Below the pieces are notes generated by a model that searched no databases, had not been told where the DNA came from, and saw only the letters and a list, made by a program, of their open reading frames with translations. Made by a program: the position numbers and the translations under genes. 64,000 nucleotides of DNA from an uncultured delta proteobacterium. GTDB taxonomy: Bacteria > Myxococcota_A > Polyangia > Polyangiales > Polyangiaceae. This document shows positions 1,572 to 63,063 of the stretch, in pieces; position 1 is the stretch's first letter, and every line of letters begins with the position of its first letter. The stretch covers positions 108,948 to 172,947 of the forward strand of contig CAVSWE010000003.1 of the NCBI GenBank assembly GCA_963731595.1. Reading direction: 5' to 3'.

Positions 1572-1578
1572 GCGCCGC

Positions 1579-2370: not shown

Positions 2371-2429
2371 GAGCGCAAGGCCGCTGACGCCCTGCGCGTG
2401 TGCTATGTAGCAGACGCACCTGGAGAAGG

Positions 2430-3533: not shown

Positions 3534-3536
3534 CGG

Positions 3537-4288: not shown

Positions 4289-5254
4289 GTGCGCCGCTTC
4301 ACCCGGTTCGTTTGGTTGGTCCTCGTCTACGACGTGCTCGTCGTGCTTTGGGGCGCGTACGTGCGCATCAGCTTCTCGGGCGACGGCTGCGGCCGTCACT
4401 GGCCGCTCTGCAACGGCGAGCTCGTGCCCCACGCGCCGCAGACGAAGATGCTCGTCGAGCTGAGCCACCGAGTCTCGAGCTTCGGCTCGCTCGTCCTCGC
4501 GGCACTCGTCTTCGTCGCCGCGCGACGCCTCTTCGCGAAGGGGTCGCCCGTGCGCCGCGGAGCGGGCTACGCGCTCGGTTTCACGCTCGCCGAGGCGCTC
4601 ATCGGCGCCGGCCTCGTCCTCTTGCGCCTCGTCGCGCACGACGTCTCGCTCACGCGCGGCGTGTCCACGTCGCTCCACTTGGGCAACACGTTCCTGCTGC
4701 TCGCGAGCCTCGCGCTCACGGCCCGCGCGTCGGCGGGCGCGCCCGCGCCGTCGTTACGCGGGCGAGGCACGCTCGCCGCTCTCGCCGGCGCGACGCTCTT
4801 CGCGGCGCTCCTCGTCGGGGCGACCGGCTCGATCGCCGCGCTCGGCGACACGCTGTTTCCGTCGCACTCGGTCGCGCAGGGGCTCGCGCAGGACGTGTCG
4901 GCGGCGGCGCCTCTCTTCATTCGCCTCCGCTCCATTCACCCGTTCATGGCGGTGGGAGCCGGCGTGCTGATGCTCGCGTTCGCGACGTACGCGGCGGCGT
5001 CGAACAAATCGCGCTCCGTCGCGCTCTTCGCGCGTCTGCTCACCGTCGCGTTCTTCGTCCAGGTCGCGCTGGGCGTGACGAACATCGTGCTCCTCGCGCC
5101 GACCTGGCTCCAGCTTCTCCACCTCGGCTCGGCCGACGTGGTCTGGGTGCTGCTCGTCTTGCTCGCGTCGAGCGCGCTCGCGGAGCCCAAGTCGTCCGAA
5201 GAGCTCAGCGAGTCGCGAGGAGAAGCGCTCGCAGAGTCTCCGCCTGCTCGGTGA
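4289..5254 (+). CDS. ctaA: heme A synthase (CtaA/COX15 family)
   Basis: ORF 4289-5254 (GTG start; AAAGAGAGG RBS-like upstream). Polytopic membrane protein with the CtaA signature HWPLCNG near the N-terminus and a second Cys/His-bearing half. Overlaps convergent gene 5205-6611 by ~50 nt at the 3' end. Confidence 0.7.
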   Translation: MRRFTRFVWLVLVYDVLVVLWGAYVRISFSGDGCGRHWPLCNGELVPHAPQTKMLVELSHRVSSFGSLVLAALVFVAARRLFAKGSPVRRGAGYALGFTLAEALIGAGLVLLRLVAHDVSLTRGVSTSLHLGNTFLLLASLALTARASAGAPAPSLRGRGTLAALAGATLFAALLVGATGSIAALGDTLFPSHSVAQGLAQDVSAAAPLFIRLRSIHPFMAVGAGVLMLAFATYAAASNKSRSVALFARLLTVAFFVQVALGVTNIVLLAPTWLQLLHLGSADVVWVLLVLLASSALAEPKSSEELSESRGEALAESPPAR

Positions 5255-10885: not shown

Positions 10886-13238
10886 TCACTGGCGTACGAA
10901 GATGGGGTTCGTCGCGGCGAACGGCTGAATCGGCATGAAGGGCAGAATGTCGTCGAGGGTCCGCTTGCCGCGGACGACGACCATCACCCAAGTACCGGCG
11001 GCGCCGACGGTCGAGTCGCCGAGGTCGACCTTCACGTCCGTGTCGAGCCGGACCGTGCGCGCCTGAGCCTCCTCGAGCGGGCCGGTCTCCGGTCCGGTGA
11101 TCGTCGGACGCGACGGAACGTCGATCGTCTGAACGATCTTCGCCGGCTCGAGCGTCGCGCCGTGCACGCCGACGACGATGTCCACCGTCGTGACGTCCAC
11201 CCAAGGCGCTGCGCGCACGACCAAATGGCCGGACAGCTCGCGCCCCTTCGCGCTGACGTCGCCGCCGGGGCGCGCCCCCTCGAGGACGAAGTCGACGATC
11301 GGTCCGCTCGTGACGGTGACGTGGCCGGCTTTGATCGCGGCGACGATCGCGGCCGGATCTCTTTCCGTCGACGCGCACCATCGTGCGCGGATACCCGGCC
11401 CACTGGTACTGGATGCGGTGCGAGTCGCTCGACCCGGTGATCGCGTAACGATGTCCCGCGTCGAGGAGCGCCCAATAATCGCGGAGGACGTTCTCGACGC
11501 GCTCGAGCGAGGCGCTCTCGTAGCCGTTGAAGACCTCGAGCGCGTCGAAGTCGAGCCTGATGCGCGCCGGCGGCGGCGTGCCCGCCTTCCACCCGAACGC
11601 GGTGAAGTAACCGATGTCGCGCGCGAGGCGCGGGTGGTGCACGACGAGGACGCGCTTCGGATCGCCGCCGCGCGCCGACGCGAAGACGGCTCCGACGTTC
11701 GTGTGGCGAAACGCCGGGACGCCCTTGCCCTGCGGATACGGAAAGATCCCGAAGTGACCGAAGCGCGGCGAGTACGTCGTAATCTCGACGCCGGGCACGA
11801 ACATGAGCTCGCCCTCGAGCCCGAGCATCGCGAGCGAAGGACCGTAGTCGCCGACGAGGTTGTGCTCGGTCGGCACGGCGAAGTCGATGCCGGCGGCGAC
11901 GAGCGAGAGCACGCGGTCCTCGGGCGAGACGGGGGAGTCGAAGCTCGGCCGCGCGTGGACGTGGAGATCGCAGCCGAGCTCGTCCGGCGTCGGGACCACG
12001 TGGCGCGGCGCGAGGTCGAGATCGACTCGCTTGCCTGGAGCGATCGCGACGACGCGCGAGTCGATGCTCCACTCGATCCCCTTCGTCACGGCGACGCGGT
12101 ATTTCCCCGCCGGGAGCGGCGTCGTCACCTCGCCGCGGAGCGCGTCGATGATCGGCCCCGCGCCCGACGCGCGATAATCGGGGCCGAAGCTCGGGTCGAG
12201 CGTGCCGTCGATTCCGTGCACGAGCAGGCGCGCGGTGATCGGCTCGTTCGTGTCGGCGTCGAGCACGCGCACGTGGAGCTCGCCGCCGTCGGAGACGTCG
12301 AGCTGGAGGTCCCACGGCGTTCCGGGCGCGTGGATCACCGGCGCGCTCGTGCGCGTCGCGCTCGCGCTCGCGTACCAGCTCGTGACGAACGCCGGCGCGC
12401 GGAAATCGAATCGACCGGCGACGTCCGTCGCGAGGCGCATCTGCTGAGCGCCCTGATCGTCGAGCCCGACGACGTGCGTCGCGCCCGGCGCGCCCGTGAC
12501 GAAGCCTTTCACGCGCTTGGTCTCGACGTGCGCGCGATCGAACAAGACCGCCCACGGGCTCCCGCGCCGCGCGCCGCCGACGGCGATCGTGAAGCGCGCG
12601 TCCTCCGGCGGGACCGTGACGCGCACCTCCATCGCGTGCGCGTCCTCGCTCCGCGGCGCGAGCGCGACGCGCATCGGCTTGCCCGCGGCGACGAAGCCGA
12701 TCGGGTGCGCCGCGTCGGAGAGCACGGCAAACCGTCCGCTCTCCGCCGTGAGATCGGCCAGCTCGCCGCGCCCGGAGAGGAACACCTCGCGACCCTCCGT
12801 CGGGAGCCGAACGCCGACGCCGTGCTCGACGCCGGGGTCCCCGCTCTCGGTCGCCGAATCCGCGCCGCCGCGGACCGTCACGTCGAGCGCGTCGTGCGCC
12901 GCGTCCACCGTGAACGTCATCTCGCGGTCGTCTTTCGTGCGCGCGCGCGCGCGCGTCACGCCGTCGTTCGCGAGATCCGGCATCGTGATCGGTTCGACGG
13001 CGTCGTCCGCGCTCGCGACGATCTCGCCCTCGACCGAGCGTGCGCCGTCGCTCGTCTCGACGCGGATGCGTCCGTCGCGAAAGAGCGTGAAGCGCGCGTG
13101 CTTCGACTCGAGCGTCACGCTCGGCGCGTTGCGGGCGCGCAGGTCGCCGCACTTGTGCATCGCGTGGATGAGCACGGCGACGGCGACCATCGCGAGCACG
13201 AGCAGCGCGTACGGCCTCGCCCGCTCGCTGTCGTTCAC
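10886..13238 (-). pseudogene. PHP-domain (CehA/McbA-like metal-dependent phosphoesterase) secreted protein, single-nt frameshift near 11363
   Basis: N-terminal part is in the frame of ORF 10743-13718. GTG at 13238 overlaps the tsaE TGA, signal-like N-terminus [25 protein letters not shown] motifs CDLHVHARPS ... PTEHN ... GSSDSHRIQYQW. After ...YPRTMVRVDGK that frame turns Arg-rich. The +1-shifted frame (ORF 10886-11224 and its upstream extension ERDPAAIVAAIKAGHVTVTSGP...) continues protein-like to a stop at 10886. The shift maps to the T-run in ctctttcc (~11359-11366). Confidence 0.6.
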
Positions 13239-13678
13239 GAGAGCCCCGCGGCGCGCGGCCCGCTCAGCGTCGCGTCGCGCCCGCTCTTGCCGATCGCGAG
13301 GCGCACGACGAGCGCCGCGTCGCCACCGAGCCAGGCGATCGCGTCCTCGCCCCACTCGACGACGAGGATGCATCCCTCCGCGCGGCGCTCGCGAAGCCCG
13401 AGCCGCTCGATCTCGCGCCGCTCGCCCTCGCCGAGGAGCCGATGCAAGTCGCAATGCAGCAGCGTCGCGCTCGGCGTCTCGTACTCTTGGATCAGCGCGA
13501 ACGTCGGGCTCGTCACGGGCTCCTCCTCGGCCACGCCGAGCCCGCGCGCGATCCCGCCGGCGAGCGCGGTCTTGCCGGCACCGAGCTCGCCCGACAGCAC
13601 GACGAGATCGCCGGGAGCGAGGCGCGCGCCGATGGCGCGTCCGAGTCGCTCGGTGTCCCGACGCGTTCGCAGGTGCAC
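13235..13678 (-). CDS. tsaE: tRNA threonylcarbamoyladenosine biosynthesis protein TsaE (YjeE ATPase)
   Basis: ORF 13235-13678. P-loop GELGAGKT, size ~147 aa, typical TsaE layout. Confidence 0.85.
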
Positions 13679-13727
13679 GAACGACGAGGCTACTCCAAGC
13701 GCGCCCCGCGCTCAGCACCCGTCGTCG

Positions 13728-38079: not shown

Positions 38080-40466
38080 ATGCGCGCCCTGCATTTCGCG
38101 CCCCTCGTGTTTCTCTGCTTTTGCGAGTCGAACCAGGTCCCGGCCGCGGCGCGGACGTTCGATCTCGGCGACGGCACGACGGCGACGTTCGCCGGCGACG
38201 GCTCGCTGCTCGTGACGCGCGACGGCGCGCCGCTGCTCGCGTCGCCCGGCCTCGTCTCGCGCTCGCTCGACTCCGACTCGCCCGACGCGTGGCACGATCC
38301 CGCGAAGGCGAGCTACGCGTTCGAAGGGATCGACCCGCGCACCGTCGACGTCGAGAGCCCCGCGCCCGGCGTCCTCCACGTGACGACGCACGACGACGGC
38401 TCGCCGACGGCGCTCGTGCGCGTCACGCTCGCGAGCGACGACGGCTTCTACACCGGCCTCGGCGAGCGCTTCGGCCACGTCTCGGCGCGCGGACAGATCG
38501 TGCCGATGCAGCTCGAGATCGACGCGAAGTTCGAGTCGGCGACGAACGACGCGCACGTGCCCGTGCCGCTGCTCGTCTCGTCGAAAGGCTACGGCGTCTT
38601 CGTCGAGAGCCGCGAGTCGGGCGCGTTCGACGTCGCGAGCACCGACGCGGGAAAAGTCACGGCCACCTTCGAGGGCAAGGCCGAGAGCGTCTGGTTCTTC
38701 TTCGCGCGCGACCCGCTCGATGTCGTTGCAGAATACACGCAACACGTCGGCCTCCCCCGGGTCCTCCCGCGCTGGGCGCTCGGGCCGTTCTACTGGCGCA
38801 ACACGTGGGACAGCCAAGCGCAGATGATCGACGACGCCGTCATGATGCGGAACCTCCACATCCCGACGACGACCATGTGGATCGACAACCCCTGGCAGAC
38901 CTCTTACGACACGTCGGTCCCCGATCCGGCGCGCTTCCCGGACCCGCCCACCCTGATGGGCGAGCTCGCCGCGCTCGGCTACCGCGTCATGTTCTGGTCG
39001 GAGCCGTACCTCGAGAAGCCCGGCACCGGCCCCGACGACGAGGCGCGCCAGCTCTACGCCCAAGCCGCCGCGCAGCCCGACGTGCTCGTGCACCTGAAAG
39101 ACGGCTCGATCCTCGCGGCGCTCGGCTCGGACGACAAGCTCCAGTTCGGCATGATCGATTTCTCGACGGCCGCGGGCCGCGATTTTTGGGCGAGCCTCGT
39201 CTCGCGCGCGGTCGCGCTCGGCGCGAGCGGGTTCAAGCTCGACTACGGCGAGGACATCGTGCCGTCGTTCTTCAACGCGCGGCTCGGCGTCGTCTTCGCC
39301 GACGGCGAGACCGACCGCACGGCGCGCACCTACCCGCTCGGCTATCACATGGCCTACCACCAGGCGCTCGACGCGGTGCGCAGCGACGGCTTCTTGCTCG
39401 TGCGCGCGTCGAGCTGGGGCGGCGCGTCGATCACGAACGCGATTTGGCCGGGCGATCTCGACAACGATTTTCGAAATACGGCGACGACGACGGCAGCGGC
39501 ACCCTCCTCGTCGGCGGCCTCCCGTCGGCGATCGTCGCCGCGCAGACGCTCGCGGTCAGCGGCTTCCCGAGCTTCGGCTCCGACACCGGCGGCTTCCGCC
39601 ACGGCGCGCCGACGAAAGAAGCGCTCATCCGCTGGGCCGAGCACACCGCGCTCTCGGTCGTCATGCAGCTCGGCGGCGGAGGGGATACTCACGCGCCGTG
39701 GGCGTACGACGGAGAGACGGTGTCGCTCTACCGAAACCTCGCCAGCCTGCACACTCGGCTCGAGCCGTACCTTTCGTCCATCCTGCGCGAGGCGGAGACG
39801 AAGGGCACGCCGACGATCCGTCCGCTGCCGCTGGCGTTCCCGAGCGATCCGGGCGCGGCGGCGTTCGCCGACGACGAGTACATGCTCGGCCCCGATCTGT
39901 TCGTCGCGCCGGTCACGACGGCGGGCGCGAGCGATCGCATGGTGCATTTCCCGCCCGGCGACTGGGCGAGCTTCACGCTGAACACGATCGTCAGCGGTCC
40001 GGTCGAAGAGAAGTGGGTCGCGCCGCTCGGCACGCCGATCCTCTTCGGGCGGGTCGGCGCGCTCCTTCCGATGCTCGCCGCCGACGTCGACACGCTCACC
40101 GACGCGACCGCGCCGGCGGTCGTCCGCGCCGCCGATCGTCCGACGCTCGAAGCGCGAGGCTGGCCGCGCGGCCCCGCGAGCGCGACGTTCGACGACGGCT
40201 CGCAAATCGCGATCGACGACACCTCGCAAGGCGTCAGCGTCACCTTTCTTCCGGGCGCCTTCGGCCAGGCGATCGTGTGCACGCTCGACTTGAAATCGCG
40301 CCAAGGCAAGACCTCGCAGCTCACGCACGTCTTCTCGGGCGCGACCGAGCTTCCGTCGGTCACGAGCGAGGCCGACGTGCGCGCGTCGAGCGGCAGCACG
40401 TATTTTCTCGACGGCGACTCGATCGTGCTGCGCCTCGCCGGCGCGCAAACCGCGTGGATCGAATGA
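38080..40466 (+). pseudogene. glycoside hydrolase family 31 (alpha-glucosidase/xylosidase-like), frameshift near 39470
   Basis: ORF 38080-39981 carries the N-terminal beta-sandwich and the start of the catalytic barrel (…MFWSEPY…GFKLDYGED…WPGDLDNDF), then turns Arg/Ser-rich. The -1 frame (ORF 38073-40466) continues as GH31 (…GLPSAIVAAQTLAVSGFPSFGSDTGGF…) to the stop at 40466. The shift maps to the gattttcgaaa homopolymers at 39468-39476. Confidence 0.7.
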
Positions 40467-47752: not shown

Positions 47753-47910
47753 CCAGTCGGAGACGGCGACGGAGACGGAGACGGAGCGGATTCGGCCCTC
47801 CCGGGCGGATTCCTGAAATTTCGGGCGACCCTCGGACGAATCCTCCGGGAAACCCCATGCTCGCCGCGGTCTTCTTTGCTTCGCCTCGCCCACGCGGCAA
47901 CATCGCCCCC

Positions 47911-48471
47911 ATGACTGCGGCGGTGTCGGTCGAGGCGTTTTCGCGGGAGGCGGCCGAGCTGCGGCCGCTCTTGCGAGCCGTCGCGGCTTCGGTGCTCCAC
48001 GTCGGCCCCGAGCATCCGGACGTCGACGACGCGGTCAGCGAGACGATGAGGCGCGCGATCGAGGGGCGCGCTCGGCTGCGCGCGGGCGAGCCGCTCCGCG
48101 CGTGGATCGTCGGCATCGTGAAGCACGTCGCGCTCGACGCGGCGCGGAGCCGGACGCGCGCGCAGAGGCGTCAGGCGAACGAGCCGCCGCCCGACTCGGC
48201 CTCGGCCGGCAGCCTCGCCGACCGCATTCCGGACTCGAAGCCGTCGCCCTTCGAGCGCACCGCGCGCGCGCAGGAGCTCGCGCGCGTCGAAGCCGCGCTG
48301 GGCGAGCTGCCGGAGAAGCAGCGCGAGGCGGTCACGCTGTTCTTTCTCGAGGGCCTCTCGTACGTCGAGATCGGCCGGCGGCTCTCCGTGCCGGTGGGCA
48401 CGGTCGCGACCTGGATTCTCCGCGGACGAAAGGCGCTCGCCGCGACGCTGACGGAAAGGAAGACACCGTGA
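47911..48471 (+). CDS. RNA polymerase ECF-type sigma-70 factor
   Basis: C-terminal part of ORF 46603-48471. Region 2 (DAVSETMRRAIEG...FRAWIVGIVKHVALDAAR) and region 4 (LPEKQREAVTLFFLEGLSYVEIGRRLSVPVGTVATW). Start ATG 47911, alternative 47857. Confidence 0.75.
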   Translation: MTAAVSVEAFSREAAELRPLLRAVAASVLHVGPEHPDVDDAVSETMRRAIEGRARLRAGEPLRAWIVGIVKHVALDAARSRTRAQRRQANEPPPDSASAGSLADRIPDSKPSPFERTARAQELARVEAALGELPEKQREAVTLFFLEGLSYVEIGRRLSVPVGTVATWILRGRKALAATLTERKTP

Positions 48472-48995
48472 AGCCGACCGAACCCGACCCCGAGCCCGCG
48501 CGGCTCTCGAGCGAAGAGACGTGGGAGGGCGACCACCTCAGCGAGGTCGCCCTCTCGTGCCTCGCCGACGCCCAGGACGTGCTCGACCCGGTCGCGCGCG
48601 TCCACGCCGAATCGTGTGCAGAATGCACCCTTCGGATCGGGGCGATGGCGCTCGAGTCGCACGACGTCGGCGCCGCGCTCCGGGTCGCCAAGAACCTCTC
48701 GATCGCGACCGCGAAGGCCTCGCACCGGTTTCCGACGGTGCTCGTCGCCGCCGCCGTCGTGCTCGCGTCCGTCTGCGGCGCGCCCGCGTTGTTCGACGCG
48801 CTGCCGCGCGCGACCGCGTTCGTCTTCGCGGCGCCGCGCGTCCTGCCGGTCGTCACCAGCTCCGCGTGGAGCGTCGCCAAGAGCTTGTCCACCGGGCCGA
48901 GCGGCGCCGCCGTCTCGCTCGTCACCACCTTCGCGCTCGCGCTCATCGGTTGGGCCGTCGCGCGTACGTCTCGCAACTCGGGAGTCACGTCATGA
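48468..48995 (+). CDS. zinc-finger (HxxxCxxC) anti-sigma factor with transmembrane segment
   Basis: GTG 48468 overlaps the sigma-factor stop (GTGA). HAESCAEC motif, then hydrophobic helix (TVLVAAAVVLASVCGAPALF). C-terminal part of ORF 48102-48995. Confidence 0.65.
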   Translation: MKPTEPDPEPARLSSEETWEGDHLSEVALSCLADAQDVLDPVARVHAESCAECTLRIGAMALESHDVGAALRVAKNLSIATAKASHRFPTVLVAAAVVLASVCGAPALFDALPRATAFVFAAPRVLPVVTSSAWSVAKSLSTGPSGAAVSLVTTFALALIGWAVARTSRNSGVTS

Positions 48996-50287
48996 ATCGC
49001 TTTCGAAAGCTCGCAGTCCTCGCGTTCGCCTCCGCGGCGCTCGTTTCTTCCGCGGCGCTCGCCGAGGTCCGTCACGAGGGCGCTTGGCCGGCCGACAAGC
49101 GCGTCTCGCTCGACGCCAAGCACGTCGGACGCGTCGACGCCGTCACGCGCCTCGCGAAAGACGCGGGTTGGAGCGTCGTCTTGCGCGGCGTCGACGACGG
49201 CGAGCCGTTCGACGTCCACGTCGCCGATCAGCCGGCCGACAAAGTCCTCGACGTCGTGCTCGGCGACGGAGACTACACGGCCAAGCGCGACGGCACGCTC
49301 ATCACGATCACTGGCGCGGCCCCGCCGCCTCCAGCGACCGCGACGCCCGCCGCGACCGCCGCCGCGCCCCCGCCTGCGGCTCCGACGGCAGCGCCGGCGA
49401 TTGTGACCGCGCGCGGCGAGGACCGCATGGTCCACGGCGGGGACATCGTCATCGGCGCCGACGAGACCGTCCACGACGTGACCGTCTTCGGCGGGTCGGC
49501 GACGGTCTACGGGACCGCGACCGGCAACCTCACGGTCTTCGGCGGGAGCGCCTCCGTGAAGAAGGGCGGTCACGTCTTCGGCAACGCGACCGCGGTCGGC
49601 GGCTCGCTCGACGTCGCCGACGGCGCGGAGGTCGACGGCGACGTCGGCGTCGTGGGCGGCTCGCTCGATCGTCACAAGGGCTCCAAAATCGGCGGCTCCC
49701 TCCGCAAGAAGGACGACAAGCGCATCGGCGCCGAGACCTCCTCGTCGGGGCGCTCGATCCTCCGCGAGGTCAGCGACGCGACCACGCGCGCGGCGATGCT
49801 CTTCGTGTTCGGCGCGGTCCTCTTCGCGCTCGCGGGCGACAAGATGAACAAGCTCCGCATCGAGGCCGCGTCGCGTCCGATGCGCTCGTTCGCGCTCGGC
49901 CTCGTCGGCCTGCTCGTGGGCGCGGTGGCGCTCACGGTCATCGCGATCACGATCATCGGTATCCCCGTCGCGTTCGTGCTCTTGCTCGGCGCGGTCTTCG
50001 CGGCCTACGCGGGCATCTGCGCCGTCCTCGCGACGGTCGGCAAAGCGCTGATCGGTCACAAGACCGACAACCCGCACGTCCACTTGCTCGTCGGCTGCGC
50101 GCTCTTCCTCGTGAGCGGCGCGATCCCGTTCGTGAGCGGTCTCGTCACCCTCGCGGTCGTCCTCACCGGCATCGGCGTCGTCGTCGCGACGCGCGGTGCC
50201 GGCACCGTCCGCGGCGGCGGGACCCCGGTTTCCGGCCCGTATCGCACCGAAACGACGCTCGTCGAAAACGGCAGAGGCGCGTACTGA
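48992..50287 (+). CDS. bactofilin-like beta-helical repeat membrane protein (sigma/anti-sigma operon member)
   Basis: ATG 48992 overlaps the anti-sigma stop (ATGA). Signal peptide MNRFRKLAVLAFASAALVSSAALA. Repeats VFGGSATVYGTATGNLTVFGGSASVKKGGHVFGNATAVGGSLDV. Three C-terminal TM helices. C-terminal part of ORF 48521-50287. Confidence 0.6.
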   Translation: MNRFRKLAVLAFASAALVSSAALAEVRHEGAWPADKRVSLDAKHVGRVDAVTRLAKDAGWSVVLRGVDDGEPFDVHVADQPADKVLDVVLGDGDYTAKRDGTLITITGAAPPPPATATPAATAAAPPPAAPTAAPAIVTARGEDRMVHGGDIVIGADETVHDVTVFGGSATVYGTATGNLTVFGGSASVKKGGHVFGNATAVGGSLDVADGAEVDGDVGVVGGSLDRHKGSKIGGSLRKKDDKRIGAETSSSGRSILREVSDATTRAAMLFVFGAVLFALAGDKMNKLRIEAASRPMRSFALGLVGLLVGAVALTVIAITIIGIPVAFVLLLGAVFAAYAGICAVLATVGKALIGHKTDNPHVHLLVGCALFLVSGAIPFVSGLVTLAVVLTGIGVVVATRGAGTVRGGGTPVSGPYRTETTLVENGRGAY

Positions 50288-50357
50288 ACGACCGACCAGA
50301 TCGCGCACGCTTCCGAGATCGATCGCGCTTCCGAGGTGATACCCTCGGCGATCCGGG

Positions 50358-53300
50358 ATGAGCGACTCGACTCGACATCGCCCGACCGCAGGCGTTTCCG
50401 CGGTCATCGACTCGCTCGACGAGCGACTCGAAAACGAAGGTGAGGTTCTCAGCGCCTTCCTGCTCGCGCTCTCCAGAAATCAGCTCCCGAAGGAGGCGTG
50501 GGACAAGCTGCATCTCGCGGCGAAGCGCGACGACCGCGTGACCGAGCTCGCCTTCGCGTTCGAGGGCCTCGCGGCCGATCGCAAGCTGCGGACGCTGCAC
50601 GCGGGCGTGGTCGCGGAGTTCATGTACCAGTCGTCGATCTTCTTCGGCGACGTCATGGGCGACGACGTCGGGTCGCAGAGTTACTTGGATCGGGCGATGG
50701 CCGCGCTCCCGACGCACCCGGGCTCGCTCGCGCGTTTCGAGGAGAAGCTCACGCAGGCCGGCGAGTTCACCAAGCTCGGCGAATTCTACTTCGAGCTCGC
50801 GCAACACCGCCCGCGCGCCGAGCAGGGGCCCGTGCTGCGCAAGGCCGTCGAGGCGTTCGAAAGAGCGCAGGCGAGCGAACGTCTCGCCGACACCCTCACG
50901 CTGCTCGTGCGCGTCGAGCCGAAAGACGAAGAGGCGCGCGCCAAGCTCGAGGAGGCGCTCCTCCAGGCGAACCGCCCGCGCGACGTCGCCAAGATGCTCG
51001 AGCAGGCGCTGACGAGCGACCCGCCGCCGGCGGACGACGTCGCGTTCGCGCACCGCACGAAGCTCCTCGCGCTCTACGAAGAAACGAGCGAGGTCGAGCG
51101 CGCGCTCCCGCACGTCGAGTGGCTCCTCGAGCACGCGCCGGGGCACGAGGGCGCCAAGAGCATCGGAATTCGCCTGCTCGAGGTGAAGGCTTGCGCGCAG
51201 CGCGCCGCCGCCGCGCTTGCCGCGGCGTCCGAGAAGCAGGAGCTATGGGGCGACGCGAGCCGCTACTACCTCCTCGAGCTCGAGAGCGCGCGCGGCGCGA
51301 GAAGGTTCGGTCCGCTCCGCGCGCTCGCGGCGCTCAAGCACGATCGCGAGGAGGACTTCGCGGGCGCGTTCGACATGGCCGAGCAGGCGCTGCAGATCGA
51401 TCCGAGCGACGGCAATCTCCTCGACCGCTACGTCGTGCTCACGCGGGCGCTCGGCAAGCACGACGCCGCCCAGAAGATGCTCCAGCGGCTCGTCAGCCTG
51501 ACGAAGGATCCCTCGGCGCGGGCTCGTCTCGCCGCCGAGATGGGCGAGCTCTTGCTCGCGACGGGCGACGTGAAGCGCGCGCGCGCGGCGTTCTCGAGCG
51601 CGCTCACCGTGCCGGGCGCGTCCGACCTCGCCGTGCTCCCCGCGATGCACGCGCTCGCGCGCCTCTACGGCGAGGACGAGGACCACGTGTCTCTCGCCGA
51701 GATGCTCGAGCGCATCGTGAAGACCGAGCCGGACGTCGTGCGCCGGCAGCAGGCCGCCGAGCAGCTCGCCGAGCTCGCGTCGGGCGCACTCGGCGATCCG
51801 GCGCGCGCGGCCGCCGCGTACCGAGGCCTCCTCGAGACCCCTGCGCGCGAGCGCGCGCTCGAAGCCCTCGAGCCGCTGCTCGCGTCGCTCGGCGATTCGC
51901 TCGGCCTCGTCGAGGTGCTCCACGCCAAGGCGAAGGACGCGCCGACGCCCGACGCGCGCCGCGCGCTCCTCGTGCGCGCCGCCGAGCAGCTCACCGCGTC
52001 GTCGAGCGAGACGCCCATCGCGTCGCACTCATGGCGCGAGATCGTCGAGGAGTTCGGCCCGAACCAAGACGTCCTCTCGCGGTGGATCCCGCTGCTCGAG
52101 CTCGAGCGCGATTTCCCGACGCTCGCGACGGCGTACGAGTCGCTCGCGGGGATCGTCGAGGGCGCCGAGAAGGTGTCGACGCTCGGACGTCTCGGTCTGC
52201 TACGCATGCAGTGGCTCGGTGACGGACGCGGCGCAGCGGAAGCGTTCCGCGAAGCGCTCGCGATCGATCCGCAGGACTCCATCGCGCGCGACGCGCTCGA
52301 GCAGCTCCTCGACTCGAAAGACCCGGCGATCGCGCTCGCGGCCGCCGACGTCCTCGAGCCGATGGTCCGCGCCGAGGGATCGCGGGCTGGGCTCTTGCGC
52401 GTGCTCCTCGCGCGCGTGCACGGCGCGACCGACGCGGACGAGAAGGGCCGGGCGCTCGAGGGCGCCGTCGCGCTCGCGGAGCACCTCCCGAGCGAGCGCG
52501 GCCGCGTGCTCGCGCTCGTGCGCAGCGCGCTCGAGGGCGCGATCGACGAGAACCGGCCCGTCGCGCCGTGGCTTTCGGCGCTCGAACGTCTCTCGCCGGG
52601 CGAGGTCGGCGCGGGCGCGCGCGCCGACGTGCTCGCGCTCGCGCTGGGCGAGCGTGCGGTCTCCACCGACGAGCTCCTGCTGCTCGCGCAGCGCCTCGGC
52701 GACGCGGCGATGCTCGCCGGCGATCGCGCGCGCGCTCTCGACTCGTACAAGCGCGCGCTCGAGTACTCGCCGTCGTCCCCCGAGCTCATGGCGGGCGTCA
52801 ATCTGCTCCTCCGCGAACAGGGCACGCCGCACGATCGCGTGAAGCTCTACCGCTCCGCGCTCGCGACCGAGAGCTCGCCCGACAAGCGACGCGGCTTGCA
52901 CCTCGCGATCGCCAGCCTGCAGCGCAAAGAGCTCGGCGACGCGGGCGGGGCGGCCGAGACGCTCCGCGCGAGCCTGGCCGAAGGGCCCGACGACGCGACG
53001 GAGGACGCGCTCTACGAGATCTACTGCGACGCGGGCGCGTTCGCCGACGCGTGCACGCTGCTCGAGCAGCGCCTCCCGCGCACGCCGCCGGGCGAAGACG
53101 AGCGCGCCGTTCGTGCGCGCCTCGCTCGCCTCGCCTCGGACCACAAGCTCCACGAGCGCGCCGCGTTGCACGCCCGCTCGCTCGCGGAGGACGCGTTCGT
53201 CACGAACGCCGCTCTCGAATCTCGTCGAGCAGGTCGCCGAGCGCGCGGAGGATCGCGAGCTCTTGATCCTCGCGGCGCAGAAGCGCGTCGAGATCGCGGA

Positions 53301-56300
53301 GTCGACCGAGGACAGAGTCTTCTGGCACACGCGGCTAGGTACGCTCCACACCGAGCGCGGCGAAGCGACGGCCGCGGCGGCGGCGTGGCGTGACGCCGCC
53401 CGCGCGGCCGAGGAGATGGGCGACGCGAAGACCGCACGCAAGCTCTACGAGCGCATCCGTCGCGGAGCGCCGTTCGATCGCGTCGCGACCGAGCGTCTCG
53501 CCGGGCTGCTCGAAGGGGGCGGGGAATGGTCGGCCTTGCCCGAGCTCTACGCGGCGCTCGTCGAGTCGGCCGCCAGCCCCGGAGAGCGCAAGGACGCGCT
53601 CCTCCGGCTCGCGGCGGTCCTCGAGCAGCGGCTCGGCGACGCGGCGGGCGCGTTCGACGCCGTCGCGCGCGCGTTTTTGGAGGTCCCGAGCGACGAAGCG
53701 GCCCTCGCGCGGCTCGCGGAGCTCGCCGTCGCTGCGTCGGCGGTCCCGTCGTTCACGCGCACCGTCGACGGCGCGCTCGCGGGCGACGCGGGCCGCGACC
53801 CCACGCTGCGCGCGCGTCTCGTCGCCGCCAAGGCGGAGGTGCTCGCGAAGACCGGCGCGAACCCCAGCGAAGCGCGCGAGGTGTTCCGCGCGGTGCTCGA
53901 GGATCCGTTCGCCGACGACGCGACCAAGTCGCGCGCCGCGGACGCGTTCGAGTCGCTCCTCGCCGCGTCGGACGCGAAGGCCGAGGCCGACGCGTGGCGC
54001 TGGCTCCTCGCGTGGCGCGCCTCGCGCGAGACCGGGCCCGCGCGCGCGCGCGCGCTGGCGCGGTTCGCGCGCCTCGAGGAAGAGAAGCTCGGCGACGCGG
54101 CGCGCGCCACCAATCTCTGGAAGCAGGCCGCCGAGGCCGATCCGACGAGCGACGAGGCCCCCGTCGAAATCGCGCGACTCATGGTCGCGAGCGGCGACGT
54201 GGACGGCGCGCTCGCGACGCTCCGCGCGCGCCTCGAGCGCGCGAGCGAGGAGAAGGCGCCGCAAATCCGCGCAGAGATCGCGGCGCTCCTCGCCTCGATT
54301 CCGGGGCGTGAAGGCGAGGCGATGAGCGAGCTCCGCGCCGCGCTCGAGCGCCGCGCGGACGACGAAGCCGCGCTGCGCATGCTCGTCAAGTTGCTGCCGC
54401 ACGCCGAGATCGGCGCCGAGGCGTCGCGCCTGCTCGAGTCGTCGCTCGCGATCGCGGATGGCGCCGCGCGCAAGCGCGTGCTCGCCGCGCTCGTCTCGGG
54501 CGCGCTCGAAGCGCCGCTCGAGCGCAGGCGCGCGTGGCACGGCCAGCTCCTCGAGCTCGCGCCGTCGCCCGACGAGGCGTACGGCGTCTTGCTCCGCGCG
54601 CTCGCGGAGCTCCCGAGCGAGCTCGCGTGGTGGGACCGCGCCGAGCAGCTCGCGCGCACGCTCGATCGCCCGCAAGAGCTCTCCGATCTCTACCACGGCG
54701 CGATCACGCGGCCGGTCCCGACCGAAGACGCGCTCGAGCTCGGACAGCGCGCCGTCTCGTTCCACGAAGAGTGGTTCGACGACGCGGCGGCCGTCGTTCG
54801 CATCCTCGAGCGCATGGTGGACCTCGATCCCGCCGGTTGGGCGTTCGATCGACTGAAGCTCCTCTACGATTCGCAGGAGCGCTGGGACGATCTGTTCGCG
54901 CTCTACGATCGTCTCCTCGCCGGCGACCTCGACGAGGGCCGCCGGACCGAGCTCCTCGAGGACGCCGCGCAGATCGCGAAGGACTTCGCCAAGAACGCGG
55001 ACCGCGCGATCGCGTACCTCGAGCAGCTCCTCCACTTCAAGCCGAAGAACGAGCGCCTGCTCGCGTCGCTCGAGCGCCTCTACGAGCGGTACGGAAAGCA
55101 CCGCGAGCTCATCGGCTTGCTCGGCGCGCAGATCGGCGGAAAAGAGCCGAAAGAGGCGCACGAGCTCCGCGTGCGAATGGCGTCGCTCTGGCTCGACGAG
55201 CTCGCCGACGCGGGCTCCGCGCTGATCGTCGTCGAGGAGATGATGCGCGAGGGCGAGACCGGCGACGAAGTCATCGCGCTGCTCGAGCGCGTCCTCGCGG
55301 CCGCGCCACAGGGCGAGGAGATGAAGAAGACGCTGCCGCCGACGTCGTCGCCGATCAGCGAGCACGTCGCCGCCGCGCACGAGAGCAGCGCGCCGCCGCG
55401 CGCGTCCGTCCCGCCGCGCGCGTCCGTCCCGCCGCCGGGTGGAAAAGGTCGGAGCAAGCGCGTCCTCGTCCGACAGCGCGCCGCGTCGCTGCTGCGTGAG
55501 CGTTACGCCGAGGCGGGTCGCGACGCCAATCTCGCGCGCATGCTCGAGATCGAGCTCGAGGCCGTGAAGAACGCGAAGGAGCGCATCCGCCGCCACGCCG
55601 AGGTCGCGACGCTGCACGAACGGCTCGCGAACGACGCCGCCGCGCTCGAGCACGCCGTCTCCCTCGTGATGCTCGATCCCGACGCGAACGTGCATCGCGA
55701 GCGCCTCGCGCGCCTCGCGGACAAGACCGGACGCTACGATCGCCTCGGCGAGGTGCTCGCCGCCGCGGCCGACGACTGCGAGAGCGAAGAGCTCCGCGCG
55801 ACCCTGCTCTGCGACGCCGCGACCGTCTACGCCGAGCGGCTCGGCGACGTCGGGCGCGCGGTCGACTTGCTCGGGCGCGTCCTCACGCTCGACGTGCCAC
55901 CCGCCTCGATGCTGGCCGCCGCCCGCACGCTCGACGCGCTGCTCGCGAAGACCGATCGCCGCGGGGACCGCCTCGCCGTGCTCGAGCGCCTCGCCACGCT
56001 CGAAGAAGACGCCGCGGCGAAGCGCGAAGCGCTCGGTGTCGCCGCGCGGCTCGCCGCCGAAATCGGCGAGAGCGAGCGTTGCATCGCGGCATGGGAGGCA
56101 CGGCTCGCCGACGACCGGAGCGACATCGAGGCGCTCGACGGTCTCGTCGACGTCCTCGCCTCGTCGGGGCGCTTGCGGCCGCTCGTCGACGCGCTGCTCG
56201 TCCGCGCGGATCTCCACGAGCCCGACGCGTCGAGCCGCGACGACCGCGTGCGCGCCGCGCGCATCCTCTCCGGCGAGCTCGACTCCGCCGACGAAGCGAT

Positions 56301-59300
56301 CGCGGTGTGGGAGGCGGTCCGAAAAGCGAGCGGCGAGGCCGACGACGCCGACGCGGCGCTCGCGGAGCTCTACGACGCCCGTGCGCGGTGGAAGGAGCTC
56401 GCCGAGCTGCTCGAGCGCTCCGCCGCGCGGCACGACGACGCGGAGACGAAGGCGAGCTTGCTCGTGCGGCTCGGCGACGTGCAGCGCGCGAAGCTCGACG
56501 AGGCGGCGCGCGCGATCGAGAGCTACGCCAAGAGCCTCGCGTCGAAGCCAGGCGACGCGCGCGCGGCGCACGGGCTGACGGCGCTCCTCGACGTGACCGC
56601 CTCGGCGCGCGAGGCGCTCGACGTGCTCTTGCGCGACCACGCGGCGACCGACTCGTGGTCGGCGACCGTCGCGCTGCTCCCGCAGCGGCTCCGCCTCGCG
56701 AAGGACGACGAAGAGCGCGTCGCCGACTTGCTCGAGACCGCCGACCTCTTCGAGACGCGAGCGGGCGACATGGAAGCGGCGTTCCACGCGACGCGCGAAG
56801 CGTTCCTGATCGCCGCGGGCGCCGAGAGCGTGGCGAGCGTCGCCGAGCGGCGCGCGGGAGAGGCCGCCATATCCGGCGCGCCCGACGCGTACCGCGCGCT
56901 CGCCGAAGCGCATCGAGTCGTGCTCGAGGCCATCGAAGGCTCGCGCCCGGCCGACAATCCGGACGTCCTGCGTCTCCGGACGACGCTGGGCGCGCTCCTC
57001 GAGACTCGCCTCGACGACCCGCGCGGCGCGCTCGTCCAGTTCACGCGCGTCGCGGGCGACGAGCCGACGAACGAAGCGGCGGCGCTCTCGCTCATCCGCG
57101 TCGCGGCGCGCGTGGCCCGGTGGGACGCGGCCACGAAGATCGTGCTCGACCGCGCGGCGCTCGCGGGCGGTCCCGACGAGACGCTGCTCCGCGCGCTCGA
57201 AGAGGCGGCCTCTGCGCAAGCCGGTTGGGACGCGGTCACCGGCGCATTCGAAGCGGCGATCGGCCAGCGGACGGATCTCGGGAAAGAGTCGCTGCGCGAT
57301 CTCGAGGCTCGTCTAGCGACGTGGCACCGCGATCGGCGCGCCGACGCCGAGGCGGCCGAGGCCGCGTACGGCCGCGCGCTGTCGCACGACGCGACCGACA
57401 CCGAGCTGCTCGCGCAGCTCGCGCAACTCCAGAGGCGTCACCGCGGCCGTCCGCTCATCGACAGCCTGCTGCGCCTCTCGCAGGCGACCGGGGGCGATCC
57501 TGATCTGCTGCGCGAGGCCGCCGAGGTCGCGGCGCGCGTGGTCGTCGATCGCGGGCTCGCCAAGACGATCCTCGAGCGGCTCATGAAGCTCGCGTCCGAG
57601 CGCTGGACGTCGGGAGACGACCACCCGCCGAGCACCGTCTCGCCGGACGCGGTCGACGAGGCGCCGCCGAGCGTCGGCGCGAGCACGCACCCGAGCGAGC
57701 ACGTCGAGTGGGCGCTCGCCGAGCTGCTGCGCGTCCACAACGAAGAGGGCGCCGCCGAGCGCATCGTCGAGCTCCTCGAGACTTCGGCGAAGCTTCCGTT
57801 CGCGCGCCCGCGCGCCCGCGAGCTGCTGCACGAAGCCGGCACGACGGCCCTCGACCGAGTCGGCGACGCGCAAGCGGCGCTGCGACTCTACGCGAGCCTC
57901 TTCGAGCAAGACCCGCGCGACGCCGAGGCCGCGCGCAGGCTCGCCGAGGTCTACGCGACGCTCGGGCGCAAGGAAGACTTGCTCGCGGTCCGCAAGAAGC
58001 AGGTCGAGGTCGCCGTCGTCGCCGACGAGCGCGTCGCGCACCGACTCGACGCGGCGCTGCTCGAGCGCGACCTCGGTCGCGTCGACGACGCGGCGGCGAC
58101 GTTGCGCGCGAACCTCGCGGACGCGCCGCGGCACGCGAGGACGACGCTCGTCCTCTCGGAGACGCTCGAAGCGGCGGCCCGTTGGGACGAGCTCGCGGGG
58201 TTCTGCGCCGAGCAAGCCACGCTCGCGGAGGCCGACGGCGACGCGCTCTCGGCCGTCGAGCTCTGGGCGCGCGCCGCGAGCATCGCCGAGGAGAAGCTCG
58301 GTCACCTCGCGATGGCGCTCGCGCACTACAAGCGGAGCCTCGCGCTCGAGCTTCGCGCGCCATTGCTCGACGCGATCGCGCGCATCCACGAACAGCGGAA
58401 GGAATGGCTCGACGCCGCGTCGCACCTCGATCGGCTCGTCCGCGAGTTTCCCGAGCAGCGAAGCCACGTCATCGTGCGCCTCGCCGACGCCTACACGCAC
58501 GCCGAGCGCGACGCCGACGCGCAGCAACGTCTCGAAGCGGCGCTCGGCGATCCGAGCTCGCCGCCCGAGGTCGCTTCGCGCCTCGCCGCCATCTATCGGC
58601 GCACCGAGCAGTGGCCGCCGCTCGCCGAGCTCGTCGCGCGTCAAGCCGGCCAGGCGAGGTTGGACGACGAGCGGCGCGCGCTCCTCGTCGAAGCCGCCGA
58701 GATCTTCCTCAGGCAGTGCGCGCAGCCCGAGCAGGCGGTGCCGCTCCTCGAGCAAGCGAGCGCGCTCGCGCCCGAGGATCGCGCGCTGAAGCTGCGTCTC
58801 GGCGAAGCCCTCCAAGACGCGGGCCGCGCCGACGACGCCCGCGTGCTCTTGCGCGACATGATCGACGCGTTCGCCGGACGCCGTCCGAAGGAACGCGCCA
58901 CCGTCCACTTCCACCTCGCGCGGCTCAATCTGCGGCTCGGCGATCGCGCGCAGGCGCTCGCCGAGCTCGAGGCCGCGACCCGGATCGATCCAGCGAACCC
59001 CGGAAATTTTGCGAATGGTCGCCGAGCTCGCGCGCGACGACGGGCAGCTCGACAAGGCCGAGCGCTCCTACCGCGCGCTGCTCGCCGTCGTTCGCCGCGC
59101 CGACGACGACGCGCCGGTCTTGCGGAGCGAGGTGCTCGTCGAGCTCAGCGCGCTCGCGGAGCGGCAGGGCGAGCCCGAGCGCGCGTCCGAGATCCTGGAG
59201 TCCGCGTTCGAGACGGCAGCGGGCTCCGACGCCGAGGCGCGGCGGCTCGAAAAAGCGCTCCGCGCACGAGGGAACACGAAGGGGCTCCTCCGTTCGCTCG

Positions 59301-62300
59301 ACGCGCGGCTCTCGCGTGCGCCCGACGCCGCCGCGCGCGCCGAGGTGCTCGGCGAGCTCGCGCGAGCGCACGACTCGCTCGGCGACACCGCCGCGGCGCT
59401 GCGCTCGCAGCTCGACGCGATCGCCGAGACGCCCGCCGCGGCGCCGGCGCACGACGCGGCGATGGCTCTCGCGACGAAGCTCGGCAACCCGGAGGCGTAC
59501 GTCGAGGCGATCACGGCGCTCGCCGACCGCGTGAGCGGCGACCCGAAGGCCTCGTGCGCGCTGATCCTCCGCGCGGCCGACGCGCTAGGTCGCGGGCCGG
59601 ACGGCGTCGCGCGCGCGATCGTCTTGCTCGAACGCGCCCGCGCGACCGGCGCGATGCGCGGCGAGGTGCTGCGGGCGCTCGACCGCGCGTACGCGTCGCT
59701 CGGCGACGCGGAGAAGCAAGAGGCCGTGCTCGGGGAGCTCTCGACGCTCGAGGCCGAGGCACGCCTCGCGATCCGCGCGGCGCGGCCGACGTCCTCTACC
59801 GACTCGCCGAGCTGCGCGCGAAGCGCCCCGACGCGGCCGACGACGCGGCGCGCGCGCTCGCGACCGCGCTCGATTTCGCGGCGGATCCCGAGCGAGCGGC
59901 CGCGATCGCCGCGTCGGCGATCGACGCGGGCGGCAAGACCGCCGCGATGCTCGAGGTCTTCGCGCGCGCCGCGCGGGCGGCCGGACGCGCCGACTTCTCC
60001 GCACGCGCAGTGTTGCTCCAGGCCGAGCGCGACGACGCGCCGCTCGCGACGCTCCGGGACGCGGCGCAGCTCGCGCTCCAGTCGGGCGACGCCTCGCTCG
60101 CCGAGTCGCTCCTCCGCCGCGTGGTCGCGGGGGCCGACGGCGATCGCGAGACGCTCGGCCGCGCGCTGCTCGATCTCGCCGCGCTCGTCGCGGCGCGCGG
60201 CGACGCGAGCGAAGCGCTCGGCATCGAGCTCGACGCCGGCGACGCCTCGAGCCCCGAGGACGCGCGCCGTCTCCGCGAGAGCGTCGCCGCGCGCGCACGC
60301 CAAATCGGCGACGTCGCCATCGAGCTCCGCGCGCGCCGCGAAATCGCCCTCGCGGATCCGTCGGACGTCTCGGCCCGCGCCGGCCTGCTCGAGCTGCTCC
60401 GCACGACGGGCGACGCGGCGGCGCTGCTCGCGGTCGTCGAGCTCCTGCTCCCGTCGGTCCAAGAAGAGACCGAGCGCCGCGCGCTGCGACTCGAGCGCGC
60501 GCGCCTCCTCGCGACGAGCCCCGAGCGCGTCGACGAGGTCGTCGGCGAGCTTCGCACGCTGCTCGAGGAGGAGCCGTACGACACGCAAGCCGTCGCCCTC
60601 CTCGCGGAGCTCCTCGAGGCGCGCGGCGAGACCGGCGAGCTCGCGTCGCTCCTCGAACGTCAGATCGACGCGGCGAAAGATCGCGAGGACGCCGCGGGCG
60701 TCGCCGTGCTCTCGCTCCGTCTCGGCTCGCTCGTCGAAGCGGACGATTCGGCGCGCGCGCGCACGCTCTACTCCGCGGGTCTCGATTGGGAACCGAAGAA
60801 CCGCTCGCTGCTCCTCGCGATGAAGCGCCTCTTGACGGCGACCGGCGGCGACGCCGGCGATCGCGCCGACGTGATGGAGCGTCTCCTCGAGACCGAGCAG
60901 GGCGAAGCCGCCGCCAATCTCGCGCTCGAGCTCGCGGCGCTCCGCGCCGAGCAGTGGGACGACGCGGGCGTCGAGCGCGCGCTCGAGGCTGGCCTCGCGG
61001 CGTGCCCGTCGAGCGAGGCGATTCGATCTCGCCTCGTGTCGCTCTACGAAGATCGCGGCGATCGTCGCAAGCTCGCCGCGCTGAAAGAGACCGCGTCGCG
61101 CGCGCTCGGCGGCGAAGCGGCGAAGAAAGAGCTCCTCGGCGCGGCCGCGCTCCACCGCGAGCTCGGCGACACCGTGGCCGTCGCGCGCGCGATGCGCGCC
61201 GCCCACTCCGCCGATCCGAACGACCCCGAGGTGCTCGCCGGCTTCGCGGGCGCGCTCGAGCAGCTCGGCGACGAGGGCGCCGCCGAAGAGCTCGCGGCGC
61301 TCCTCGAGACGCGGTCGGAGCCGATCGTGTACTCGGCGCGCGCGCGCGTCTTCGGCACGCTCGGCCGTCACCCCGAGGCGATCGCCGACGCCGAGCGCGT
61401 GTTCGCCGCGGACGCCGCGGCCGGCGCCGGCCTCTTGCTCGACGTCCTCGTGCGCGCGGCCGACGCTTCCGACGCGGAGGCTCAAAAGCCGCTCCGGCGG
61501 CGCGTCGCCGATCTCCACGCGTCCGCGGGCCGCGTCGACGAGGCGCACGCGCAGCTCGAGATCCTCCTCTCGCACGACGAGTCGGATCGCGACACGCTCT
61601 GGGCGATGGGCGCGCTCGAGGAGTCCGCCGGCCGATTCGACACGGCGAGCGACACCTACGCGCGGCTCCTCGAGCTCGAGGCCGACGCGCGCCTGGTCGA
61701 GGTCGCGCTCCGTCTCGCCGACGTCTCCACCAGCGCGCAAAACCCGGGCTACGCGCGCGCCGGCCTCGAGAAGGCCCACGCGACCGCGCCGGCCGACGAG
61801 CGCGTCATCGAGAAGCTGTCGGCCGTCTACGCGGCGATTGGCGCGCAGCGCGAGCTCGCCGAGCTTCGTCTCGCCGAGGCGCGCGCCGCGACCGATCCGA
61901 ACCGTCGCTTCGACATGCTCGTCGCGGCGGGCACCGCCCTGCTCGAGCACGACCCGGCCGCCGCGGTCGCCGCGCTCGAGGAAGCGCGCGGCATCAAGCC
62001 GGCCGACGCCGAGTGCACCGGCCTGCTCGCCGACGCGCTCATCGGCTCCGAGCGCTACGACGAAGCGCGCGACATCCTCCAAGCGGTCGTCGCCGCGCAC
62101 AAGGGCCGCCGCTCGCGCGATCTCGCGCCGATTTACCTGCGCCTCGGGCGCCTCGAGAACACGCTCGGAAACCCGAAGGGCGCGCTTCAGATGCTCTCGA
62201 CCGGCCTCGACATGGACGGCCAGAACGGCGTCGTCGCCTCCGAGCTCGCGTACGTGGCGCTGGCCGAGGGCGAGCTCGACGCGGCGACGCGCGCGCTCCG

Positions 62301-62481
62301 CGCGATCACCATGCTCCGCACCGCCGCGCCCATCTCGAAGGGGGTCGCCTACGAGCGCCTCGGCGAAATCGCGATGCACCAGGGCGACAACAAGCGCGCC
62401 GTCATGCTCCTGAAGCGCGCCGTCGACGAGGACGCGACGCTCGAGCACGCCCGCGAGCTCCTCGCGCAGCTCGGCTCCTGA
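50358..62481 (+). pseudogene. giant (~4040 aa) alpha-helical TPR-like repeat protein, apparent frameshift near 53215
   Basis: ORF 50358-53393 is protein-like up to ...LAEDAFVTNAALE (~53215), then Arg-rich. ORF 53113-62481 is protein-like from ...LSNLVEQVAERAEDRELLILAAQKR (~53212) to the stop at 62481. Both are uniformly Ala/Leu/Glu/Arg-rich helical repeats of the same character, so one gene with one indel is most parsimonious. Confidence 0.55.
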
Positions 62482-62502: not shown

Positions 62503-63063
62503 TTGGGGAGGGGAGCCGCCATCGTCTTCGTCGCGTTGCTCGTTCCCGTTTCGGCGTTCGGCGAGGACGAGCGAGGGGGCGGCTTCGATCTGCTGCTCGA
62601 GGGCGGCGCGCTCGCGGGCGTCCACGGCGCTCCTCTGTCGTTCGCGCCCGTCGCCCAGGTCGACCTCCTCGGTCGCGCGCGCGTCGCCAAGCATCTGGCG
62701 TTGACCGGCGGCATCTCCGCGCTTCCCGTTCCGGATGTCTTCTCGCTCGGCGCCATCGGGCGCCTCGAGTGGCTGCCGCTGGACGACGAGCCGCTCGTGT
62801 TCAGCGTCTTCGCAGGAACTCGCCTCCTCGTACTGCAACCGTTCTGCGTCGTCACGACGACCTCCACGTGCTCGACCGAATTCGGCGAGGCCGGCGGCTT
62901 GCTCGGCGAGGTCGGCGTCGCGCTTCGCACGACGCGCCTCTCCGGTTACCGTTTCGGACTGACGCTCTCCGCGGTCGCCGGCGTCGTCGCGCCGTACGAC
63001 GACGCCCAGTCGCTGCGCGCGTTCTACGTCGGTGGTATAGCGGGTCTCGGCGTCACGTTCTGA
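62503..63063 (+). CDS. hypothetical secreted beta-rich protein (C-terminal Phe, OMP-like)
   Basis: ORF 62503-63063 (TTG start in track). Signal peptide ([16 protein letters not shown]). Gly/aromatic-alternating segments. Ends ...GLGVTF. Confidence 0.5.

Follow-up and report, generated by a model that had tools for sequence, protein, structure and literature searches.

The DNA analysed here is a stretch of 64,000 nucleotides (nt), herein the window, from contig CAVSWE010000003.1 of the assembly GCA_963731595.1, a genome of an uncultured member of the Polyangiaceae, and its subject is a giant gene that occupies positions 50358–62481 of the plus strand. As given, the sequence contains two overlapping open reading frames (ORFs) in this interval, 50358–53393 (1,011 amino acids, aa) and 53113–62481 (3,122 aa). 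A first-pass annotation, made from the letters of the window, had recognized this pair and proposed that both belong to one gene for an alpha-helical repeat protein of about 4000 aa, interrupted by an indel near 53215.

Coding signal and reading frames of the giant gene

The G+C content of the window is about 73%, and because the third codon position is nearly always G or C in such DNA, the true frame can be read from it directly. A frame plot of third-position GC (GC3) gives values of 0.85–0.99 on the plus strand from 50358 through 62481, with three shifts in the phase of the signal, at about 53210, 58950 and 59800. The first-pass annotation had seen the coding signal pass from one ORF to the other at about 53205–53222, and this handover is located here at 53217–53221. 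It had also described 12 kb of uniform sequence, which holds for the richness in Ala, Leu, Arg, Glu and Asp but not for the reading frame, the signal lying in a third frame between ~59002 and 59758. The 3,122-aa ORF is open across this interval by chance: its residues ~1965–2225 are Arg-rich and out of frame, with 252 nonsense codons, and the third frame gives ...EILRMVAELARDDGQLDKAERSYRALL... at the same place. The indels that separate the coding segments were defined by blastn against the closest orthologous locus (L003; L numbers denote loci and P numbers proteins) and by local DNA alignments with L003, L005 and L006, and the gene is laid out as follows.

50358..53217, plus strand: coding segment 1, starting at ATG 50358; aa 1–953 and the first base of codon 954 (GC3)
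53218..53219, plus strand: indel 1, one extra A; CTCGAATCTC here, CTCG-ATCTC in L003, L005 and L006 (DNA alignments)
53221..59001, plus strand: coding segment 2; aa 955–2881 (GC3, and single-frame tblastn to L003 and L005 once corrected)
58998..59002, plus strand: indel 2, one extra C or G in CCCCGG; AACCCCGGAAATT here, AACCCC-GAGATT or AA-CCCGGAGATT in orthologues
59003..59758, plus strand: coding segment 3, in the third frame; aa 2882–3133 (the GC3 maximum changes phase)
between 59758 and 59759, plus strand: indel 3, one A missing; GCCGAG-GCACG here, GTCGAGAGCACG in orthologues
59761..62481, plus strand: coding segment 4 with the stop codon; aa 3135–4040

In the blastn comparison with L003, the gene contains no uncompensated frame-shifting gaps other than these three, all of them one base long and located at short runs. 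The indel foreseen near 53215 is thus real as a feature of the sequence, in the form of the extra A at 53218/53219, but it is one of three. Indel 1 is an uncompensated +1 gap, and orthologues have ...FATNADLDLVEQVAE... at this junction; at indel 2, IDPANPEILRMVAELARDDGQL is the same in L003, L005, L006 and L007, and the corrected junction is spanned by matches to the Pfam families TPR_8 and TPR_17. Two other placements, a 2-nt deletion of CT at the first junction and a third junction at about 59780, were ruled out by the DNA alignments. The segments joined in this way begin and end with conserved sequence: the N-terminus, MSDSTRHRPTAGVSAVI, is the same in L003 and conserved across 21 orthologues, and the motif that closes segment 4 is found by eye in P0019, P0160 and P0262 as well. 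Conserved blocks begin segment 3 or lie within it, at residues 2887 and 2929, and one of the most conserved of the whole family is found in this segment.

A scan of one genome per species returned 40 related loci, all from Polyangiaceae, Myxococcales or related metagenome-assembled genomes (MAGs). Among contigs that are long enough and not named like the output of a long-read assembler, more than 20 short-read MAG orthologues encode the protein in one uninterrupted collinear ORF, with a full-size class of 4,029–4,116 codons (L003, L005, L006, L012, L015 and L017–L020) and a second class of 3,477–3,516 codons. The corrected protein aligns to L003 as a single high-scoring segment pair from residue 1 to 4040, in one frame and at 84% aa identity, and to L005 in a single frame over the same 1–4040 at 72% (tblastn); all three break points are read straight through in L003, L005, L006, L007, L012 and L015. 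The same holds at greater distance for WP_394844024.1 (P0019) of Pendulispora brunnea, a 4,033-aa protein from the complete 13.4-Mb genome of a cultured myxobacterium, to whose residues 1–4031 aa 1–4038 align at 42.5% identity. Separate genes with a genuine stop and start at the junction were sought among the orthologues and not found; the orthologues are uninterrupted at the junctions, and the locus is therefore one gene, as the first-pass annotation had it, of 4,040 codons after correction. A conserved break point had been suspected from the distant homologues P0004–P0008, which all end at 1,035–1,132 aa, and was rejected: the word-indexed search (three runs) gave nothing longer than ~1.75 times the query, so that these lengths were discounted, and full-length proteins of 3,450–4,061 aa dominate an index-free search.

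Origin of the frame breaks

All three frame breaks most likely arose in the assembly, as errors of its consensus, and not in the organism. We read them in this way because orthologues from short-read assemblies and from the isolate are intact, including every short-read orthologue with the whole gene on its contig, and those from contigs with names in the style of a long-read assembler (contig_*; L004 and L011) are broken elsewhere, at three and at least five places; because at least two unrelated genes of the window are also frameshifted at short runs; and because the breaks are single-base, leave the full coding signal in place and enclose a conserved block. Indeed, the shifted frames retain GC3 above 0.9 and orthologue-level identity, with 78% identity to L003 in segment 3 versus 83–86% in the other three segments. 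Were the frameshifts instead real, the locus would be a recent pseudogene, or would encode a 1,011-aa N-terminal fragment together with a C-terminal protein in which 252 aa are meaningless, which we consider quite improbable. The indels are, to be sure, present in the sequence as given, and the 1,011-aa ORF has a protein entry in both NCBI and ENA. Two further points weigh against the artefact reading: the call is made from the assembled sequence, which leaves room for real mutations, and three of the five frameshifts detected in the window fall within this gene, which makes up 19% of it (binomial estimate, p ~0.05). A decaying gene, however, would not be expected to share its defect with unrelated genes of the window or to show undecayed GC3 and amino-acid identity in its shifted frames, and the segment that would be lost between indels 2 and 3 holds a block that is among the most conserved of the family. 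Programmed ribosomal frameshifting, for example +1 slippage at CCC-G (58999–59002), would restore the conserved reading NPEILRMV at indel 2; it is effectively excluded because the orthologues keep a single frame across all three sites, where no slippery sequence is conserved, the sites moreover differing in kind (+1, +1 and −1) and similar breaks occurring in unrelated genes. We hold with good confidence that 50358–62481 on the plus strand is a single gene for a protein of the TPR (tetratricopeptide repeat)-hairpin family, and that its breaks are most likely consensus errors; its product would serve as a multivalent docking platform.

The two other frameshifted genes lie upstream in the window. 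A gene for a GH31-like glycoside hydrolase (38080–40466, plus strand) breaks at ~39466 in a T run (T5 to T4), where GATTTTCGAAATAC seems one T short and ...WPGDLDNDF resumes as SKYGDDDGSGTLLVGGLPS... in another frame. A gene for a PHP/metallohydrolase-like protein (10886–13727, minus strand) breaks at ~11390 near GGAAAGAGAT, and there ...YPRTMVRVD resumes as ...ERDPAAIVAAIKAGHVTVTSGPIV in another frame. In the deposited assembly a gene of 4,040 aa is thus divided in two, a protein of 1,011 aa and an ORF of 3,122 aa with 252 nonsense residues, and other genes seem to carry indel errors as well; gene-level work on this MAG therefore needs frameshift correction.

Fold and family of the 4,040-residue protein

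The corrected product has a mass of 434.8 kDa, a pI of 5.03 and a net charge of −175, and is composed largely of Ala (20%), Leu (14%), Arg (10%), Glu (10%) and Asp (7.5%); it has no signal peptide or transmembrane segment (maximum 19-residue hydropathy 1.53). In the C-terminal half, Pfam profiles match well above their curated cut-offs: TPR_19 with 107.8 bits (cut-off 25) over seven stretches, TPR_15 with 46.5 (26.2), TPR_17 with 42.1 (24.4) and TPR_8 with 41.1 (25.7). The N-terminal half matches TPR_19 (33.2 bits) and ARM_TT21_5th (35.2 bits). NCBIfam adds matches below threshold to TPR families (PrsT, MamA and PilW among them), and sequence matches in the PDB are consensus TPR proteins and OGT. 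All Pfam and NCBIfam matches are of the TPR type and none is to an enzymatic domain, in agreement with the first-pass annotation, which had recognized no enzymatic motif. Autocorrelation of hydropathy and of loop residues peaks at lags of 17–18 and 34–37, with an extra loop-residue peak at 71–72, and comparison of the protein with itself by BLAST gives no off-diagonal match at E<=1e-3, so the repeats exist at the structural level only. Because this periodicity comes with no internal BLAST repeat, the hairpins are taken to be ancient and diverged, not recently duplicated.

AlphaFold2 models of two segments consist of helical hairpins, uninterrupted over aa 1–951 (54 helices, mean pLDDT [predicted local distance difference test] 89.5) and continuous over aa 1300–2050 (39 helices, pLDDT 86.3) on either side of a disordered linker. 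Profile scores above curated thresholds and tandem antiparallel helix pairs of ~34 residues in a continuous solenoid place the protein in the TPR / alpha-solenoid repeat superfamily. The TPR-like, all-helical build that the first-pass annotation had claimed, with a possible scaffold function, is thereby supported by Pfam, by AlphaFold2 and by Foldseek. Among solved structures, the best Foldseek matches of the aa 1–951 model (E ~1e-12 to 1e-13) are IFT139/TTC21B, SKI3/TTC37, Ctr9 and Naa15, eukaryotic TPR scaffolds that are likewise continuous TPR solenoids and hold multi-subunit complexes together, but share 11–15% identity, align with TM-scores of ~0.15 and are a third to a quarter as long. 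Two features subdivide the protein.

55339..55458, plus strand: disordered Pro/Ser-rich linker between solenoid arms; aa 1661–1700 (AlphaFold2 pLDDT <50, model residues 362–401)
54613..62478, plus strand: conserved core of ~2,600 aa; aa 1419–4040, preceded by an N-terminal extension of aa 1–1418

The protein is far from alone. With aa 1–951 as query, an index-free search through 1.84 billion representative proteins found 367 clusters (at 50% identity) at E<=1e-30, and among the best 150 matches those that are seemingly full length are mostly 3,450–4,061 aa. The first-pass annotation had called a protein of this size and build unusual, which was overstated, given these clusters and the prior characterization of GltI/AgmK (PMC11761067). 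Judged by sequence, it belongs end to end to a giant collinear TPR family of Polyangiaceae and related myxobacteria whose members span 3,450–4,116 aa. In an alignment of 22 full-length members conservation extends over the entire length, with variable stretches at aa 1651–1700, 2051–2450 and 3001–3100; the linker at aa 1661–1700 has the lowest family occupancy (0.53), and aa 2051–2450 are mostly missing from the class of ~3,480 aa. WP_394844024.1 and the MAG orthologues have the same size and architecture, with no architectural difference, and are in practice the same family. Names given to family members are automated only, various sources offering PilF, golgin, SbcC and colicin-uptake protein, and general literature searches found no publication on the giant Polyangiaceae family.

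Shorter relatives define the core. P0262 of Sandaracinus amylolyticus (2601 aa) aligns through residues 20–2599 to aa 1419–4039 at 35.8% identity over 2,682 columns (blastp), and the class of 2,580–2,650 aa is also present in Plesiocystis, Haliangium and Nannocystis. Because aa 1419–4040 are collinear with these ~2,600-aa proteins, the Polyangiaceae protein can be described as a ~2,600-aa core plus an N-terminal extension of ~1,400 aa. The proteins of Sandaracinus, Plesiocystis pacifica, Haliangium and Nannocystis share with it, by eye, a block at the start of the core (FHEEWF / ERW(D/T)DL) and the C-terminal motif, but are without the extension. In Sandaracinus the core-only gene (L046, CP011125.1, 3620800–3648605) lies 240 nt downstream, on the same strand, of a complete chemosensory cluster (CheW, MCP, CheA, CheB and REC-HK); the Haliangium homologue (L047) has no such neighbour. 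A second, distantly related family of giant TPR proteins has members of 3,720–3,820 aa. The MAG Polyangiaceae STL-MYX18 encodes both families, a 3,938-aa protein of the present one (L031, JAXLYR010000004.1) and P0160, of 3,777 aa, from the second (L043, JAXLYR010000018.1), and in three loci (L043–L045) the second family lies away from glt genes.

Two aberrant homologues were seen along the way. P0001, a partial protein from a 3,287-nt Polyangiaceae MAG contig, is a 72%-identical fragment that switches suddenly after ...LFALYDRILAG to sequence resembling a cation-diffusion-facilitator membrane protein, which suggests a chimeric contig or a rearrangement. At L002 (JGI Ga0394183_0010973, 4560–4633) a distant homologue is called as proteins of 1,132 aa and >572 aa with a 25-nt overlap, the split being a frame change in a variable region.

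Genomic setting, comparison with GltI and possible role

Upstream of the giant gene lie the genes of an ECF (extracytoplasmic function) sigma factor, a putative anti-sigma factor and a membrane protein, and a promoter-like motif precedes its start codon.

~47908-48471, plus strand: ECF sigma factor (NCBIfam TIGR02937, 80 bits against a cut-off of 42.9)
48471-48995, plus strand: putative anti-sigma factor with one transmembrane segment (inspection only)
48992-50287, plus strand: membrane protein (inspection only)
50337..50345, plus strand: extended −10-like motif TGATACCCT, 13 nt upstream of the start; putative sigma-70-type promoter

Farther upstream are genes for an NtrC-type activator, a DCC1-like protein and an aminotransferase, and on the 3' side follow a 186-aa ORF and glyQ. 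The site downstream of an ECF sigma/anti-sigma/membrane-protein operon, noted in the first-pass annotation, is as described in this genome, but the adjacency is confined to a close clade: synteny with these genes and with glyQ is found in L003–L007, L011 and in part L012, and elsewhere the neighbours differ (radical SAM, DyP peroxidase, SDR, ClC channel, Hsp70-like, PPK2 and LysM-esterase). No neighbour gene is conserved family-wide among the orthologous loci examined, and the paralogous families are likewise uninformative. The 186-aa ORF (62503–63063, plus strand) has a signal-like N-terminus and a C-terminal ...GLGVTF and resembles a small outer-membrane beta-barrel; it has no family match and no tblastn match in any fetched locus, and is missing from L003, where the giant gene and glyQ are 16 nt apart.

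The exact sequence TGATACCCTCG stands at 50337–50347. Counted within 60 nt upstream of the start codon, the pattern TGnTAnnnT occurs 9–50 nt upstream in the window and at 9 of the 16 orthologous loci, the background rate being 0.5% per locus; a scan for consensus promoters and terminators gave nothing at either gene end. Because the pattern recurs upstream of orthologues, an extended −10 promoter of its own probably drives the gene, independently of the neighbouring ECF sigma factor. An inverted repeat, CCGAGG-TGATAC-CCTCGG (50331–50348), overlaps the conserved −10-like motif. Two more distant genes on the minus strand of the window are also of note: at 31008–33212 there is a Major Vault Protein shoulder domain (PF11978, 94 bits) with a Vault_3 repeat (31 bits), in a bacterial MVP-like ORF that extends in full to 35204, and 6735–10727 encodes a STAND-like signalling protein of 1,330 aa, a Ser/Thr kinase that also has AAA_16 and TPR domains. 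Signalling proteins of this kind are common in myxobacteria.

The closest functional comparison is with GltI (AgmK, MXAN_4863) of Myxococcus xanthus, a cytoplasmic TPR protein of 3,822 residues that belongs to the Agl-Glt gliding machine, has a modelled length of ~1,100 A and six sites predicted to bind the GltG FHA domain, and has been proposed to scaffold several motors (PMC11761067). Its homologues in Anaeromyxobacter and Stigmatella measure 4,074–4,104 aa, and that of Sorangium cellulosum So ce56 consists of two adjacent ORFs, sce2920 (1,774 aa) and sce2921 (2,081 aa) (PMC3169522). In the latter pair, too, a frameshift or the annotation may have divided a single giant TPR gene. Linkage to the glt (G1) cluster is common to M. 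xanthus, Anaeromyxobacter, Stigmatella and Sorangium: the gltI homologue is found within the cluster or next to it, adjoining gltJ (a neighbour that is not listed in the case of Sorangium) and close to gltG, which encodes an FHA-TonB protein (PMC3169522).

The present protein could accordingly be thought of as the Polyangiaceae orthologue of GltI/AgmK, scaffolding Agl-Glt motors at focal adhesions through the GltG FHA and GltJ GYF domains, and it does share with GltI the phylum, the size class (3,822–4,104 aa among GltI homologues), the cytoplasmic location and a nearly all-TPR build. Orthology is nonetheless rather unlikely. The known gltI homologues are glt-linked (PMC3169522), whereas the neighbours here and in ~14 orthologous loci are unrelated (ECF sigma, glyQ, radical SAM, DyP peroxidase, SDR, ClC channel, PPK2, LysM-esterase), and of the window genes scanned none belongs to glt or agl. 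One MAG (STL-MYX18) moreover encodes at least one further family of giant TPR proteins together with this one, and such coexistence makes paralogy likely. Comparing the two by description and gene linkage, we hence suggest that the protein may work like a GltI-type scaffold, and file it apart from GltI because the glt linkage fails.

As a working model, we envisage an acidic cytoplasmic protein of roughly 115 TPR-like helical hairpins, whose solenoid arms are joined by short disordered linkers. It would form a very long, multivalent docking platform, many of its TPR grooves binding short peptide motifs or domains of several partners, and would keep these partner proteins together in the cytoplasm, as proposed for GltI. 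Several points count against this mechanism: it is drawn from analogy of fold, no conserved neighbour at the loci examined backs it, and the TM-scores of the Foldseek matches are so low that they indicate a fold class only and no specific relationship.

More tentatively still, the protein may be one of a superfamily of TPR platforms, giant and cytoplasmic, that occurs in Polyangia and perhaps across Myxococcota; its members would share a ~2,600-aa core and carry lineage-specific N-terminal extensions, the present branch being a glt-unlinked paralogue of GltI that organizes another machine; we regard this as possible, on balance doubtful. The giant gene itself will not surprise a specialist, belonging as it does to a family known from databases. 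In Polyangiaceae that family is large and strictly collinear, and its conservation extends over the full length, yet it is unstudied. Its resemblance to GltI suggests that several TPR rods of ~0.4 MDa may organize cytoplasmic machinery in myxobacteria, an idea that cultured relatives such as Pendulispora and Sandaracinus make testable.

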